Source: Escherichia coli (GTDB lineage: Bacteria > Pseudomonadota > Gammaproteobacteria > Enterobacterales > Enterobacteriaceae). Taken from it: DNA of 64,000 bases. A program made the translations under genes and the position numbers. Under the pieces are notes generated by a model. It was not told the DNA's origin. It saw only the letters and a program-made list of their open reading frames with translations, and did no database searches. Position 1 is the first letter of the stretch, and every line of letters begins with the position of its first letter. Positions 1 to 23,078 of the stretch are shown in pieces. Location of the stretch: NCBI RefSeq assembly GCF_050920415.1, contig NZ_CP169309.1; one strand, written 5' to 3'.

Positions 1-411
1 GCCGGTCATACCACCGGCCCCAATGGCTGCCCCCCATGCTGCAAGGGTGGCTCCGGCGGTAAAGAATGATCCGGCAATGGCGGCAGCCCCCAGGACAATC
101 TGGAATACGCCACCTGACTTGGCCCCGGCGACTCTGGGAACAATATGAATCACAGCGCCATCAGGCAGAGTCTCATGTAACTGCGCCGTTAACCCGGACG
201 TGCTGACGTCCCGCCCGGCAATCCGTACCTGATACCAGCCGTCGCTCAGTTTCTGACGAAACGCCGGGAGCTGTGTGGCCAGTGCCCGGATGGCTTCAGC
301 CCCCGTTTTCACACGAAGGTCGATGCGGCGACCAAATCGTTGTAAATCCCCGTAAAGGCAGATGCGCGCCATGCCCGGTGACGCCAGAGGGAGTGTGTGC
401 GTCGCTGCCAT
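1..411 (-). CDS. I: tail tip assembly protein I (lambda gpI-like); partial, 3' end beyond window start
   Basis: Minus-strand translation from ATG at 409-411 reads MAATHTLPLASPGMARICLYGDLQRFG... to ...FTAGATLAAWGAAIGAGGMTG at the window edge; overlaps the 3' end of K by ~100 nt as in lambda. Confidence 0.85.
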   Translation of the reverse strand, partial: MAATHTLPLASPGMARICLYGDLQRFGRRIDLRVKTGAEAIRALATQLPAFRQKLSDGWYQVRIAGRDVSTSGLTAQLHETLPDGAVIHIVPRVAGAKSGGVFQIVLGAAAIAGSFFTAGATLAAWGAAIGAGGMTG

Positions 412-1052
412 TTGTCGGTGTACCTCTCTCGTTTGCTCAGTTGTTCAGGAATATGGTGCAGCAGCTCGCCGTCGCCGCAGTAAATTGCGGCGTGATTCGG
501 CACCGATGAACCAAAACAGCACAGCAGCACATCGCCCGGCTGTGCCGCTGACAACGGCACCTGATACAGCCCCGTCGCCTCCAGATTATCCAGATAGAGA
601 TTCTGGCCGTTACGCCACCAGTCATCCTCACGATGAAAGTCCGGCATCTCAATCCCCGCCAGATGATAAGCATCCCGGAACAGTGTGTAACAGTCCGTCA
701 CACCGTGCTCAAAGCGCCGCCCGGTGAGATGCGGCACACAGCGGAACTTATGAATCGTCCCCCGGCAGACCAGCCACCACGGCAAATCACTCTGCACCTG
801 CAGCCGCCGGTCGGCCTCACTCAGCCAGGGCAGACCACCGGGGTGGCTGTGGACCAGCGCCACAATCTCACCCTGCATTTCTGCCTGCAGCCAGTCTTCC
901 GGCGACATACGGAAATACGCCTCCGGCTCACCGGAGATATTCACGCAGGGGAAATATCTTTCCCCCTCCGGCGTGCTTACCACGAAGCCGCACGACTCCG
1001 CTGGCGCACATCGCCGGGCGTGCGCCAGAATCGCTGATTCTGTCTGTGTCAT
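309..1052 (-). CDS. K: tail tip assembly protein K (lambda gpK-like, HSHPGG JAMM/MPN-like motif)
   Basis: Track ORF 247 aa MTQTESAILAHARRCAPAESCGFVV...; the start could instead be the internal Met (MSPEDWLQ...). Confidence 0.85.
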   Translation of the reverse strand: MTQTESAILAHARRCAPAESCGFVVSTPEGERYFPCVNISGEPEAYFRMSPEDWLQAEMQGEIVALVHSHPGGLPWLSEADRRLQVQSDLPWWLVCRGTIHKFRCVPHLTGRRFEHGVTDCYTLFRDAYHLAGIEMPDFHREDDWWRNGQNLYLDNLEATGLYQVPLSAAQPGDVLLCCFGSSVPNHAAIYCGDGELLHHIPEQLSKRERYTDKWQRRTHSLWRHRAWRASAFTGIYNDLVAASTFV

Positions 1053-1756: not shown

Positions 1757-2085
1757 CAGTTCACCACCTGTTCAAACTCTGCGCTGAACTCAACACGCAG
1801 CATACTGACCCGCGACGACCATTTTGCGCAGGTCACCTTTATCTGCCGCCACTCATAAGGCGGCGTCCACAGAAAGGATTTCCAGCCCCCGTGCTCTTCC
1901 AGAAACGACTCCAGTACCGTGGCCTCCTCACGGGGGACAGAAAGCGTCACGCTGTACGTTTTCAGGTTGGCATTCAGCCCGGCAGGCGCTCGCTGAGAAT
2001 AGCCATCACCAAAGCGCACCTTTCTTACAGAAGGGACCGAAGCCACATCCATACCGGGTTTCACTTTCCAGCGGAAGGTCTTCAT
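1756..2085 (-). CDS. M: minor tail protein M (lambda gpM-like)
   Basis: Track ORF 109 aa MKTFRWKVKPGMDVASVPSVRKVRFGDGYSQRAPAGL...; abuts L and H. Confidence 0.9.
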   Translation of the reverse strand: MKTFRWKVKPGMDVASVPSVRKVRFGDGYSQRAPAGLNANLKTYSVTLSVPREEATVLESFLEEHGGWKSFLWTPPYEWRQIKVTCAKWSSRVSMLRVEFSAEFEQVVN

Positions 2086-4643
2086 CGTCCACCTCCGGAG
2101 AACAGGCCACCATCACGCATCTGTGTCTGAATTTCATCACGGGCACCCTTGCGGGCCATGTCATACACCGCCTTCAGAGCAGCCGGACCTATCTGCCCGT
2201 TCGTGCCGTCGTTGTTAATCACCACATGGTTATTCTGCTCAAACGTCCCGGACGCCTGCGACCGGCTGTCTGCCATGCTGCCCGGTGTACCGACATAACC
2301 GCCGGTGGCATAGCCGCGCATCAGCCGGTAAAGATTCCCCACGCCAATCCGGCTGGTTGCCTCCTTCGTGAAGACAAACTCACCACGGTGAACAATCCCC
2401 GCTGGCTCATATTTGCCGCCGGTTCCCGTAAATCCTCCGGTTGCAAAATGGAATTTCGCCGCAGCGGCCTGAATGGCTGTACCGCCTGACGCGGATGCGC
2501 CGCCACCAACAGCCCCGCCAATGGCGCTGCCGATACTCCCGACAATCCCCACCATTGCCTGCTTAAGCAGAATTTCTGTCATCATGGACAGCACGGAACG
2601 GGTGAAGCTGCGCCAGTTCTGCTCACTGCCGGTCAGCATCGCTGCCATATTCTGTGCAATACCATCAAAGGTCTGCGTGGCTGCACTTTTTACCTGCGAC
2701 ATACTGTCCGTGGCGCTCTCTTCCCACTCACTCCAGCCGGACTTCAGGCCTGCCATCCAGCTCCCGCGAAGCTGGTCTTCAGCCGCCCAGGTCTTTTTCT
2801 GCTCTGACATGACGTTATTCAGCGCCAGCGGATTATCGCCATACTGTTCCTTCAGGCGCTGTTCCGTGGCTTCCCGTTCTGCCGGCCGGTCAGTCAGCCC
2901 CCGGCTTTTCGCATCAATGGCGGCCCGTTTTGCCCGTTGCTGCTGTGCGAATTTATCCGCCTGCTGCGCCAGCGCGTTCAGGCGCTCCTGATACGTAACC
3001 TTGTCGCCAAGTGCAGCCAGCTGGCGTTTGTACTCCAGCGTCTCATCTTTATGCGCCAGCAGGGATTTCTCCTGTGCGGACAGCTGGCGACGTTGTGCCG
3101 CCTCCTCCAGTACCGCGAACTGACTTTCTGCCTTCCACAAATCCCGGCGCTGCTGGCTGATTTTCTCATTTGCTCCGGCATGCTTCTCCAGCGTCCGGAG
3201 TTCTGCCTGAAGCGTCAGCAGGGCAGCATGAGCACTGTCTTCCTGACGATCGCCCGCAGACACCTTCACGCCGGACTGTTTCGGCTTTTTCAGCGTCGCT
3301 TCATAATCCTTTTTCGCCGCCGCCATCAGCGTGTTGTAATCCGCCTGCAGGATTTTCCCGTCTTTCAGTGCCTTGTTCAGTTCTTCCTGACGGGCGGTAT
3401 ATTTCTCCAGCGGCGTCTGCAGCCGTTCGTAAGCCTTCTGCGCCTCTTCGGTATATTTCAGCCGTGACGCTTCGGTATCGCTCTGCTGCTGCGCATTTTT
3501 GTCCTGTTGAGTCTGCTGCTCAGCCTTCTTTCGGGCGGCTTCAAGCGCAAGACGGGCCTTTTCACGATCATCCCAGTAACGCGCCCGCGCTTCATCGTTA
3601 ACAAAATAATCATCCTTGCGCAGATTCCAGATGTCGTCTGCTTTCTTAAACGCAGCCTCTGCCTTAATCAGCATCTCCTGCGCGGTATCAGGACGACCAA
3701 TATCCAGCACCGCATCCCACATGGATTTGAAGGCCCGCGCAGTCCTGTCTGCCCAGGTCTCCAGCGTGCCCATGTTCTCTTTCAGGCGGCGGGTCTGGTC
3801 ATCAAACCCTTTCGTTGCGGCCTCGTTCGCCGCCTGCAATGCCCCGGCTTCATCGCCGGAACGCTGCAACTGAGCAACATACGCAATCTGCTCCGCCGTC
3901 ACGTTATGGAACTGGCGTGCCATCGCCGTCAGCCCCGACGTCGGGTCTGTGGTCAGCTTCCCGAAGGCTTCAGCGACCTTGTCCACCTCCACGCCGGATG
4001 CAGAGGAGAAACGCGCCACACTCTGGCTGATGGACGCAATCTGAGCCTCACCGCTTACCCCCGCCTTAACCAGTGCGCTGAGTGACTCGCTGGTCTGGTT
4101 AAACGTCAGCCCTGCCGCCTGCCCGGCTCTGGACAGGACCAGCATGCGATCTGCCGTCAGACCCGACTGATTGCCGGAAAGGACCAGCGTTTTGTTGAAA
4201 TCGGACAGGGTTGAGTTGCCCTGATACCAGGCATACGCCAGCGCACCGGTCGCCACCGCCAGCGAGGTGGCCCCCACCATCGGCAGGGTGATCGCACCGG
4301 CAAGCCCCCTGAACATGGGGATCATCCCGCCGAAGGAGTCCTTCACCTGCCCCCCCTGTTGCAGCAGGATCAGCCACGGACTTTGCCCGCCTGCAAGCTG
4401 CGTGGCCACGTCGGTGAACTGTGCAGGCAGCATACGCATGGCGGCTTTATACTGCCCGACGGAAATCCCCGCTTTCTGTGCAGCCAGCGCCTGTCGGCTC
4501 AGCGACTGTTCAACGACTGCCGCTGTTTTTTTCGCATCACTTTCCGTACCGGAAAAATGACGCCTGACTCTGGCCATCTGCTCGTCAAATCTGGCCGCAT
4601 CCAGACTTAAATCAACGACCAGATCGCCTACCGGTTCAGCCAT
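2082..4643 (-). CDS. H: tail tape measure protein (lambda gpH-like)
   Basis: Track ORF 853 aa MAEPVGDLVVDLSLDAARFDEQMARVRRHFSG...; Ala/Gln-rich coiled-coil body with a Gly-rich C-terminal region. Confidence 0.95.
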   Translation of the reverse strand: MAEPVGDLVVDLSLDAARFDEQMARVRRHFSGTESDAKKTAAVVEQSLSRQALAAQKAGISVGQYKAAMRMLPAQFTDVATQLAGGQSPWLILLQQGGQVKDSFGGMIPMFRGLAGAITLPMVGATSLAVATGALAYAWYQGNSTLSDFNKTLVLSGNQSGLTADRMLVLSRAGQAAGLTFNQTSESLSALVKAGVSGEAQIASISQSVARFSSASGVEVDKVAEAFGKLTTDPTSGLTAMARQFHNVTAEQIAYVAQLQRSGDEAGALQAANEAATKGFDDQTRRLKENMGTLETWADRTARAFKSMWDAVLDIGRPDTAQEMLIKAEAAFKKADDIWNLRKDDYFVNDEARARYWDDREKARLALEAARKKAEQQTQQDKNAQQQSDTEASRLKYTEEAQKAYERLQTPLEKYTARQEELNKALKDGKILQADYNTLMAAAKKDYEATLKKPKQSGVKVSAGDRQEDSAHAALLTLQAELRTLEKHAGANEKISQQRRDLWKAESQFAVLEEAAQRRQLSAQEKSLLAHKDETLEYKRQLAALGDKVTYQERLNALAQQADKFAQQQRAKRAAIDAKSRGLTDRPAEREATEQRLKEQYGDNPLALNNVMSEQKKTWAAEDQLRGSWMAGLKSGWSEWEESATDSMSQVKSAATQTFDGIAQNMAAMLTGSEQNWRSFTRSVLSMMTEILLKQAMVGIVGSIGSAIGGAVGGGASASGGTAIQAAAAKFHFATGGFTGTGGKYEPAGIVHRGEFVFTKEATSRIGVGNLYRLMRGYATGGYVGTPGSMADSRSQASGTFEQNNHVVINNDGTNGQIGPAALKAVYDMARKGARDEIQTQMRDGGLFSGGGR

Positions 4644-4685
4644 ACCGGACTCCTCCTGCGATCCCTTCTGATACTGTCATCAGCA

Positions 4686-5069
4686 TTACGTCATCTCCGT
4701 CATGTCCGCCACATCCGGGGAAGCGGGGATAACTTCATTCCCGTCCGGGCCAAAGCGGACACCTCCGGCAAGCCCTGCCGCTTTCTGCATCAGCACATCA
4801 TCTTCAGGCTCTTCGTCAGCCTCGCGCCGGTTCAGCAGACTGAAATCCAGCGGATGCATATCCGGATCGCTGAAAAACAGGCTGAGCACGGTGTACGTCA
4901 GCCCGGAAAAGTGCATATCCAGCAGAACATCATGAAAATAATGGGTACTGTAAAAGCGGTGCCAGTCGGCATACTCCGTGGATGACATCCCGGCAAGCAT
5001 GGCACGCCAGTCAGGTCGCCCCATCTCACGCGCCAGTTTCAGGGCAAAACTCAGCTCACCGTCGAACAC
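4686..5069 (-). CDS. T: tail assembly chaperone T-frame segment (partner of G in the G-T fusion); C-terminally truncated relative to lambda T
   Basis: Track ORF 127 aa ...FDGELSFALKLAREMGRPDWRAMLAGMSSTEYADWHRFYSTHYFHDVLL...; ends ...DMTEMT* 43 nt upstream of the H start instead of overlapping it. Confidence 0.75.
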   Translation of the reverse strand: MFDGELSFALKLAREMGRPDWRAMLAGMSSTEYADWHRFYSTHYFHDVLLDMHFSGLTYTVLSLFFSDPDMHPLDFSLLNRREADEEPEDDVLMQKAAGLAGGVRFGPDGNEVIPASPDVADMTEMT

Positions 5070-5472
5070 TTTCCCGCAGAAACAGGCTCTGCGGGCCCGG
5101 CGTCCTCTGTCTGTTCAGGGCATTATTCACCACAAACTCATACATACCAGACAGCCGGTACACCACGTTTTCAGCATGAGAAATTGCCTCCGTGGGCCAG
5201 GTGGTAAGCACTTCCTGCTCAATCTGTTTAACGGCTTCATTCATGGACGGCAGCTTTGTCTTCTGCGGATGGTTATGCCACAGGGACATCGCCACCAGAA
5301 ACGCGCCGGTTCTGATGGCGTCTTCCACAGTAAACTTCCGGTTGCTGTCTGACTCCGCCTGTTCTGCCTGCCGTTTCATCAGGGCGAGATGCTCAATGCG
5401 CTGCAGGGCTGACAGTTCAGAAAGCGTGACGGTCACACCGTTATGTTCAAATGATTCGGTTTTCAGGAACAT
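5056..5472 (-). CDS. G: tail assembly chaperone G (lambda gpG-like) with frame-changed C-terminus
   Basis: Track ORF 138 aa MFLKTESFEHNGVTVTLSELSALQRIEHLALMKRQAEQ... ending ...VVNNALNRQRTPGPQSLFLRESVRR; slippery heptamer GGGAAAG at 5069-5075 (minus strand). Confidence 0.8.
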   Translation of the reverse strand: MFLKTESFEHNGVTVTLSELSALQRIEHLALMKRQAEQAESDSNRKFTVEDAIRTGAFLVAMSLWHNHPQKTKLPSMNEAVKQIEQEVLTTWPTEAISHAENVVYRLSGMYEFVVNNALNRQRTPGPQSLFLRESVRR

Positions 5473-5487
5473 CGCTGACTCTCCGGA

Positions 5488-6227
5488 TTAACTGTCGGTG
5501 ACAGTGATTTCTGCAACCGCAGCAAGTTCACCATTACCGGATAAAACCGGAATGTTGACCTTACCTGCAGCAACGCCTTTCACGGTGATGGTCATACCAC
5601 TGACCGACACGGTGGCTTTTGTTTTATCCGCTGACACCGCACGGAAGCTCTTGTCAGTTGCGCCCTCCGGCTGGAATGCCACGGTCAGCGTGGTGCTCTG
5701 CCCTTTCACCACCGAGGAGCTGGCAGGCGTCACGGTCATACCGGTTGCCGCTGTTACCGTGCTGCGATTTCTGCCATTGACGGACGGCCCACATTGGTGA
5801 CCTTCACCGTACGGGTGATCACTTCCTTCGCCGTCACCGCCTTACCGATACTGCTGACCCAGCCACGGAACACATCGACCGTGCCGTTCGGGAAGCGGAT
5901 TTTATAGGCACGGGTATCACCTTCATTAAACCACGCCAGCAGCGCCTGCTGCCCCTGCTCTCCGGGCATCCACGCCAGCGTGAAGCTGGTATCTCCGGCG
6001 GATTTCTGCCCCTGCCCGGTCGCGGTCCAGTCCGCATCTTCATCATCGAGATAACTGTCGTCATAGGACTCAGCGGTCAGTTCGCCGGGCGTCAGGTCTT
6101 TAACTTTAGCCAGACGCGACCAGTCAACGTCTGAAAGCGGGTTCGCATAAGGGTCGCCGCTCCCGTTATAAACCCACAGGGTGGTCCCGGCACCTTTCAC
6201 CGGTATTGCTGGATTTGGTACAGGCAT
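5488..6227 (-). pseudogene. V: major tail tube protein V (lambda gpV-like) split by a single-base frameshift into a tube-domain ORF (5754-6227) and an Ig-like C-terminal domain ORF (5488-5739)
   Basis: ORF 5754-6257 contains [20 protein letters not shown]...[11 protein letters not shown]; ORF 5488-5739 ([26 protein letters not shown]...ITVTDS) is in a different frame; the two are contiguous in lambda V. Confidence 0.75.
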
Positions 6228-6234
6228 ATCGTCC

Positions 6235-6630
6235 TCACATTTCATAGGTAATGACATAAGTCAGATCGGCAGAACTCCACAGGCCCGCATCATCGTCGCG
6301 CCGGTAGTCATAGCCACTGGCCACCATACTGGTGATCAAATCTGACAGTGCCGGGATATCGCTCATCACCGGATAAATCCGGGACTCCATCCACGCATCC
6401 AGCTCTGAATCCGGCACCTGAGCAGGCAGGAAAACTTCGATATGCAGTTCCGCCTGCCAGGTATCGCTGTCCAGCTCTTCGCCCGTGTATTCAGCGCCGG
6501 TGAGATAAACGGCAACTGCCGGAAAATCCGCCTCATCAAAAACAGCGGGGCGACCATCAAAAAACGTCGCCCCGGTGTCATGCTTCTCCAGTGCATCCAG
6601 TACGGCTGCACGGAGTTCAGTATGTTTCAT
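6235..6630 (-). CDS. U: tail terminator protein U (lambda gpU-like)
   Basis: Track ORF 131 aa [31 protein letters not shown]... Confidence 0.9.
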
Positions 6631-9442: not shown

Positions 9443-10742
9443 TTACACTGGTGTGTTCAGCAAATCGTTAACGGCATCAGATGCCGGGTTACCTGCAGCC
9501 AGCGGTGCCGGTGCCCCCTGCATCAGACGATCCAGCGCAGTGTCACTGCGCGCCTGTGCACTCTGTGGTGCTGCGGCCAGAATGCGGCGGGCCGTTTCCA
9601 CGGTCATACCGGGGGTTTCTGCCAGCACGCGTGCCTGTTCTTCGCGTCCGTGAGCCTCCTCACAGTTGAGGATCCCCATAATGCGACTGTTTTCTGCCGC
9701 AACCGCTGCGGTGATCTGCGCGTTCACGTCCGGCTGCGCCGCGCTGGCGTTTTCGCCCTCCGTCGCTGGCACCACGTCAGTAACGTCAGCCTGCGAAGCA
9801 GTGGCTGAAACAGTTGTTGATTGAGTCTCTTTGGTCATTCGCCCTCCTGAGAGACGGGATTTACGTGCATCCAGTGCATCACGCATGACGGTGATCGCAT
9901 CGGTGCTGTTAACAAGTTCATCAGCCAGTCCGGCATCAATGGCCTCCTGACCGCTGTACACTGCAGCCTCGGTATCCAGCACAGCCTGCACGGACAGGCC
10001 GGTATATGCCGACACCTTCTGCGCAAACATCTGGCGGGTTGCGTCCATCCGGGACTGCAGTGTCTCCCGGACGTCATCCGGAAGATGGCTGTAGGGGTTG
10101 CCATCCACCTTATGGCTGCCGCTGTAAATCAGCGTGATTTCCACACCCTGTTTCTCCAGCGCAGCACCGTAATTACTGTGAGCCATCATGACGCCGATGG
10201 AGCCTGTCCGGGCGGTCTGCGTGACCAGACGCCGGGAGGCGGCACTGGCAAGCAGCTGACCTGCACTGCAGTTCATGTCGTTGGCCAGCGCCCATACCGG
10301 TTTTATGTCACGCACACGGGCGATGATGTCAGCGCAGTCAAATGCCCCCGCCACCATCCCGCCGGGCGTGTCCATATCGAGCAGAATGCCGTCCACCATC
10401 GGATCGCTGGCAGCCTGTTGCAGACGGGCGATAATGCCGTTGTAACCGGTCATCCCCGAATACGGCTGCAGCGCCCGCGTCCGGCTGACCAGCGTGCCGG
10501 AAACCGGCAGCACGGCGATGCCGTTCATGACCTGATAACTGCGGGCCTGTCGTGGTCCGTCATCATCACCGGATAACGCCAGCGTCGCGGGTGTCTCCGG
10601 GGCAGTCAGGCTGTCACCGGACACCGCATCTGTCAGGCGGCTGATCCCAAGCTGGCCTGCAAGCGCACAAAAGAAAACCCGCGCATAGGCGGGTTCAAGC
10701 ATCAGCGGCTCATTAAAGGCCATACTGGCAATATGCGGGAGA

Positions 10743-23036: not shown

Positions 23037-23078
23037 CCAAAAAAAATGCCAGCACTTCCGTCATCGCAGAATGCTGGC
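23037..23078 (-). terminator. putative rho-independent terminator downstream of the Bro-N-like gene
   Basis: Minus strand: GCCAGCA...TGCTGGC stem followed by ATTTTTTTTGG. Confidence 0.45.

Follow-up and report, generated by a model that had tools for sequence, protein, structure and literature searches.

A shortened T frame among three single-base deletions in the tail genes of a lambda-like prophage of Escherichia coli

The prophage and its tail genes

The window, by which we mean the whole 64-kb stretch of DNA analysed here, is a piece of E. coli chromosome with a lambda-like prophage at the argU (DLP12) site. The late genes are on the minus strand and extend from K at the left edge of the window to Nu1/nohD at about 15 kb, after which the early region follows. 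The intD gene lies just left of a tRNA-Arg gene at about 35.7 kb, and from this tRNA to 64 kb the sequence is chromosomal, comprising the sfm/fim genes through the allantoin-utilisation genes. The features of the tail region considered in this work are listed in Table 1.

Table 1. Features of the tail gene region, in window coordinates
Feature	Position	Strand	Description
Tape measure gene H	2082..4643	minus	intact, 853 aa
Block shared with the ydfJ-site prophage of sister strain MFDS1022581	3172..6335		3164 bp, identical apart from the three deletions
T-frame ORF	4686..5069	minus	127 codons; stop codon TAA, 4686-4688; relatives have the same residues 1-125, followed here by M-T-stop
T lesion site	4695..4696	minus	one G lost from GG; gene strand GAGGATGAC to GAGATGAC
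G ORF as it stands	5056..5472	minus	138 aa; last 23 residues out of frame (ending NNALNRQRTPGPQSLFLRESVRR, stop)
Slippery heptamer GGGAAAG of the G-T programmed -1 frameshift	5069..5075	minus	sequence intact
G lesion site	5118..5120	minus	CCCC to CCC on the gene strand
Rest of V, out of frame (residues 153-246)	5488..5772	minus	83-aa orphan ORF
Truncated major tail protein V	5754..6227	minus	157 aa, ending SMAEIAAR, stop; 246 aa in relatives
V lesion site	5768..5769	minus	C of plus-strand GATC lost; gene strand AAGATC to AAATC

Over window 4000-6400, a 2.4-kb query from U to the beginning of H, identity is 98.0% with lambda and reaches 99.8% with E. coli prophages. The lambda chaperones engage the tape measure protein through the G part and bring in the major tail protein gpV through the T part; the ratio of gpG to gpGT is about 30:1, and tail assembly requires both (PMC5009743; PMC4493119). 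The window shares with lambda the gene order V-G-T-H, the slippery GGGAAAG heptamer and the T domain. Unlike lambda, it has, in the sequence as given, a G gene frameshifted upstream of the slip site, a heptamer that is out of phase, and a T frame that has lost its end and no longer overlaps H.

Some differences among the compared sequences concern other genes or other records. At window position 918, within the K gene (309..1052, minus strand), the lambda record NC_001416 is one base short relative to the window and to all E. coli prophage copies compared. K has 247 aa in the window and starts 5 nt after L, compared with an annotated 199 aa and a 148-nt gap after L in lambda, and in its 5' part the K of NC_001416 may be frameshifted or contain an old sequencing error. 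Compared with lambda and most prophages, the FI gene (window ~7750) lacks three bases in frame, a deletion that it has in common with phage 2H10 and that represents a natural allele. The record MW057783.1, entitled 'Campylobacter phage CJLB-4', is 98.0% identical to the window in the U-to-H region, the same score as that of lambda, and its T is 100% identical to the T of lambda; it looks like lambda DNA under another name. In the chromosomal part of the window, the sfmD usher gene (window 38383) is intact, as it is in the sister strain MFDS1022581, and a one-base deletion in sfmD, annotated as a frameshift, is common to MS 85-1, 20KM2222, Z0117EC0116 and HN68.

Single-base deletions in T, G and V

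The T frame of the window ends in PDVADMTEMT followed by the stop codon, and 42 nt separate this stop from the start codon of H at 4643, so that the end of T does not overlap the start codon of the tape measure gene. The shortening of the T frame in the sequence record is thus confirmed, and with it an earlier description of the locus from its letters alone (hereafter the sequence-only reading), which had noted a short T frame that stops upstream of H without overlapping it. The same reading had given the T frame of lambda 144 codons and an overlap with the H start, and this is correct: in NC_001416 (positions 10115-10549) T has 144 codons, ends in DMTEDDVMLMTVSEGIAGGVRYG followed by the stop, and overlaps the start of H by 8 nt. 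The proposal that the loss of a single base explains the short frame also withstood comparison. Aligned base by base with lambda, phage 2H10 and three E. coli prophages, the window has one missing base at 4695/4696, a G that is present in lambda and in every relative examined; on the plus strand the change reads CATCCTCC to CATCTCC.

The consequence of this deletion is that 17 residues are cut off, two more are changed, and the stop is uncoupled from the H start. The T product of the window is therefore without the last 19 residues (126-144) of full-length T and has gained two residues in their place, while residues 1-125 match the T of the relative JNE120442 with 100% identity. After the deletion the T frame coincides with the frame of H. 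A T-H fusion was considered and is ruled out, because three in-frame stops (TAA, TGA and TGA) intervene before the H start codon. The AGGAGG ribosome-binding site of H itself, 7-12 nt upstream of the start codon, is unchanged. The loss of the T/H overlap should not affect H translation, because only a small share of ribosomes would be expected to read T.

The G gene is frameshifted 43 nt upstream of the slippery site. In the mutated G frame the first base of GGGAAAG occupies codon position 2, not position 3, and the heptamer is out of phase with the upstream part of G as a result of the one-base deletion at 5118-5120. The T ORF of the window is in the +1 frame relative to the G start instead of the -1 frame, and the -1 relation of T to G is restored when the deleted base is put back. 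With the heptamer out of phase and T in the +1 frame, a -1 slip therefore cannot give the G-T product. Other recoding routes to G-T, by a +1 or a -2 shift, were rejected by inspection, as neither the heptamer codons CGG GAA AGU nor the context of the G stop, CGA CGG UGA, gives good re-pairing. The T lesion, if real, would consequently add little to the defect, since the G frameshift upstream already prevents the formation of G-T. When the three bases missing from V, G and T are re-inserted, the sequence is identical to that of a relative at 1704 of 1704 positions, and V, G and T are restored to 246, 140 and 144 aa, respectively.

Rarity of the deletions and natural short T ends

The occurrence of each deletion elsewhere was assessed with 81-mers spanning the deletion, compared by BLAST with the copies of the same site in 5,426 complete E. 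coli genomes. The T deletion was found in 0 of 4184 copies, the G deletion in 0 of 1546 and the V deletion in 0 of 2447. As a positive control, the same procedure applied to another prophage deletion recovered 5 genomes sharing it, showing that the test detects shared deletions. A 31-mer covering the T lesion had no exact match in collections of species-representative genomes, viral sequences and metagenome contigs, and the intact 32-mer at the same site is present in 44 viral contigs. None of the six ORF products derived from the lesions occurs as an exact sequence among about 15 billion proteins. Within these collections the lesion is confined to this record, as expected of an assembly artefact.

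The part of T that remains contains the conserved portion of the protein. The Pfam domain Phage_tail_T (PF06223) corresponds to residues 29-104 of the 144-aa T and matches over the full model (1-73 of 73, E = 3.7e-14); it falls within the kept residues 1-125 and the lost residues 126-144 lie outside it. All 34 invariant columns of the T alignment lie before residue 110, and the T of the window retains every one of them (34/34). The truncation of T alone could well be tolerated, judging from this alignment, because the conserved core is within residues 1-125. The T proteins of mEp237, mEp460 and Gifsy-1 have 106-112 aa and end at positions 110-112 of lambda T. In these short T domains (N15/mEp237-like, mEp460-like and Gifsy-1) the protein ends a few residues after the conserved motif GGVRYGPD, and the window T keeps the corresponding motif, AGLAGGVRFGPDG. 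They differ from the window in having a T frame that overlaps the tape measure start, by 23-29 nt in mEp237, mEp460 and Gifsy-1, and an intact G in the correct phase upstream.

The sequence-only reading had named naturally short T ends in related functional phages as an observation that would refute its reading. Such ends do exist in mEp237, mEp460 and Gifsy-1, but no close relative carries this particular truncation (0/4184). The interpretation that the lambda-type T domain exists naturally in a functional form with this short end draws on these functional phages, on the position of the lost residues outside the Pfam domain and on the complete retention of the invariant columns. It has to be set against the absence of this end from the 4184 closely related copies, from 140 phage records and from the 44 viral contigs, against the overlap with the tape measure start found in the natural short forms, whereas the T of the window halts 42 nt before it, and against the G frameshift upstream, which makes T unreachable by a -1 slip. 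We regard a natural variant as extremely improbable, and this interpretation as close to refuted.

The comparison of T ends also bears on the history of the lambda-type T. Relative to the short forms, lambda-type T (residues 97-144; window 4686-4790) has a C-terminal extension of about 34 aa that ends in a second copy of the terminal motif of the family (AGLAGGVRFGPDG followed at a distance by EGIAGGVRYG and the stop). The T frames of mEp237, mEp460 and Gifsy-1 stop just past the first copy of the motif and overlap the tape measure start there. This arrangement suggests an ancestral duplication of the T-end/H-start junction in lambda-type T.

The block that holds the deletions and their possible origin

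The three deletions are located in a block that, in all other respects, is identical to the ydfJ-site prophage of the sister strain MFDS1022581 (Table 1). The block is the longest substitution-free stretch between the window and that prophage; over the late region as a whole, the two differ at 307 positions in 14.2 kb, with about 2% divergence outside the block. Each deletion is more than 560 bp away from the block edge. Within the block, in a patch at 4146-6316 that contains all three deletions, the argU-type relative JNE120442 differs from the window at about 60 sites, and it is nearly identical to the window outside the patch. Taken together, these alignments describe the window prophage as what appears to be a mosaic, in which an argU-type backbone carries a patch, covering V, G, T and the 5' end of H, that is identical to the sister strain's ydfJ prophage. 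As such a mosaic would imply, the H protein is a chimera, with an N-terminal part that matches the sister strain's ydfJ prophage and a C-terminal part that matches argU-type prophages; an exact-sequence lookup of the H protein found no record.

Over the 28,293 bases of the chromosomal flank of the prophage (35708-64000), alignment with MFDS1022581 shows 1 mismatch and no gaps. A generally low-quality assembly was considered as an explanation for the deletions and is ruled out by this gap-free 28-kb flank. Length differences in poly-A tracts at 23039 and 24601 were likewise considered as errors peculiar to the window and rejected, as they are common to strain HN68 and represent natural polymorphisms.

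The sister strain has its lambda-like prophage at ydfJ, and its argU site (L005 42566-42642) contains no prophage, even though the flank is virtually identical to that of the window. Because the site is empty in so close a relative, the argU prophage appears to have been gained or lost very recently in this lineage. The portal gene of the ydfJ prophage of MFDS1022581 (L003 ~15062) has a one-base deletion and is annotated as frameshifted. An identical portal deletion is found in four unrelated complete genomes (RM10386, RM8352, ESBL 15 and PNUSAE008512), which makes it either a mutational hotspot or a recurrent sequencing error. The IS21 genes istA and istB at the ydfJ locus of MFDS1022581 are both annotated as frameshifted as well.

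Across the 64 kb, every indel except the T, G and V deletions is shared with at least one compared sequence. The rest of the prophage contains no indel that is absent from all four of its closest relatives, and the other late genes are full length in 15 of 15 cases. The chance that three random sites in the window would all fall in the block is 1.2e-4, and the chance that they would span no more than 1073 bp is 1e-3. In mutation accumulation experiments with E. coli, indels and substitutions occur at a ratio of about 1:10. With this ratio and the divergence of the flank, about 0.01 indels are expected in the block, compared with 3 seen alongside zero substitutions. All three are -1 events at G:C pairs, in different contexts: a 4-base homopolymer in G, a GATC Dam site in V and a GG pair in T. 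No methylation motif or other motif common to the three sites is apparent, apart from the one GATC. The pattern is not that of a cryptic prophage, in which lesions and substitutions are spread over the element.

The sequence-only reading had called the T lesion the second independent lesion in the G-T chaperone. The G frameshift is indeed present, but independence is unlikely given that the T, G and V deletions are clustered in a single 3.16-kb block. The three lesions probably have one shared cause, because they are the sole unshared indels and all lie in one substitution-free block. The alternative implied by the sequence-only reading is that the deletions are real inactivating mutations which arose independently as a resident prophage decayed in the ordinary way. 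Prophages of E. coli often contain frameshifted genes, one example being the portal gene in the prophage of the sister genome, whose one-base deletion is common to four other genomes; and the lesions, if real, would leave the prophage without a G-T fusion and with shortened V and T. However, decay would have to leave all other late genes intact and make no other window-unique indel in 64 kb. It would also have to account for an indel load about 270 times that predicted from the flank divergence, without a single substitution and in a block identical to another prophage, and for a clustering with a chance of about 1e-3. Moreover, the loss of tail genes would give the host no protection from induction, and we see no selection that would favor three such hits. 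We consider independent decay quite unlikely. Since ordinary decay does not fit, something local to the block would therefore have made the deletions.

One local process is error-prone recombinational repair. The deletions could be real and stem from one event, in which a tract of 2.2-3.2 kb was transferred from the ydfJ prophage to the argU prophage by gene conversion or double-strand-break repair with Pol IV/DinB-type synthesis. The boundaries of the patch speak for such an event, as a sequence that is argU-like outside ~4146-6316 and ydfJ-identical inside is the mosaic expected from conversion, and the deletions are all inside. Three -1 events at G:C pairs with zero substitutions would be in keeping with an error-prone polymerase making mainly -1 frameshifts, and the outcome would be a prophage left unable to build tails alone. 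Mutagenic break repair is known in E. coli, where RpoS/SOS/DinB-dependent mutation hotspots near breaks, in the first kilobases of the repaired break, have been documented (PMC3607216). The likeness consists in a local cluster of -1 frameshifts within an apparent recombination tract between two homologous prophages.

The density of the deletions argues in the opposite direction. Three frameshifts in about 1.1 kb need an error rate near 1e-3 per base, far above the density in earlier reports of mutagenic repair. In vitro, Pol IV makes one-base deletions at a rate of about 2e-4, and at this rate less than one deletion is expected even if the whole tract was copied without mismatch repair. The involvement of a break or of Pol IV in this prophage is conjecture. 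Confinement of the lesions to an exact repeat is also predicted by the far commoner polishing artefact, and the patch could itself be a product of the assembly. We view a conversion or repair tract made by Pol IV/DinB-type synthesis as unlikely, though more than a negligible possibility. The fuller scenario, in which both lambda-like prophages were resident, a single repair event copied a 2-3 kb tract between them with three -1 frameshifts by an error-prone polymerase, and the donor could supply V, G and G-T in trans, is slightly less likely still.

The explanation that we prefer lies in the record: the T truncation is probably an error of a long-read-based assembly, one of three single-base deletions that escaped correction in an exact repeat. 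According to this explanation, the source genome would carry a second lambda-like prophage holding an exact copy of the block, as the sister strain leads us to suppose; the exact repeat itself is seen only as the identity of the block to the ydfJ prophage of that strain. The assembly would be based on long reads, because the 64-kb contig crosses a 3-kb stretch identical to another prophage, and its consensus errors would be mostly small deletions. Short reads would not be uniquely placeable within the 3.16-kb repeat, and polishing would fail there. The Polypolish paper (PMC8812927) describes a failure mode in which short-read polishing leaves long-read errors standing specifically in repeats. 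The window resembles the errors left in repeats of hybrid assemblies, as that paper presents them, in that unshared single-base deletions are restricted to a multi-kilobase stretch with an identical copy while the surrounding unique sequence is clean. It differs in that two of the three sites are not long homopolymers and in that the second copy is known from the sister strain only.

The contexts of the deletions (the 4-base homopolymer, the Dam site and the GG) fit error types of long reads. Against an artefact, such errors less typically remove a base from GG or the C from GATCTT, and the copy of the block in the sister assembly is without the deletions, so they are not invariable errors of the sequence context. 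The block of the sister genome may not be an exact repeat there, and hence may have been polishable.

Most likely the lesion belongs to the sequence record and is an artefact; a real lesion would be an ordinary strain-specific frameshift affecting a prophage tail gene. An annotator who took the apparent loss of the G-T chaperone at face value would class the prophage as tail-defective, and the pattern of the deletions, which points to the record, calls for caution. If a repair tract did produce them, the three deletions would be the trace left in nature by mutagenic break repair, which disabled the tail genes of one prophage. Real lesions would mean that the prophage makes no G-T and no full-length V and would depend for its tails on a co-resident prophage, which is an ordinary state for a prophage of E. 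coli.
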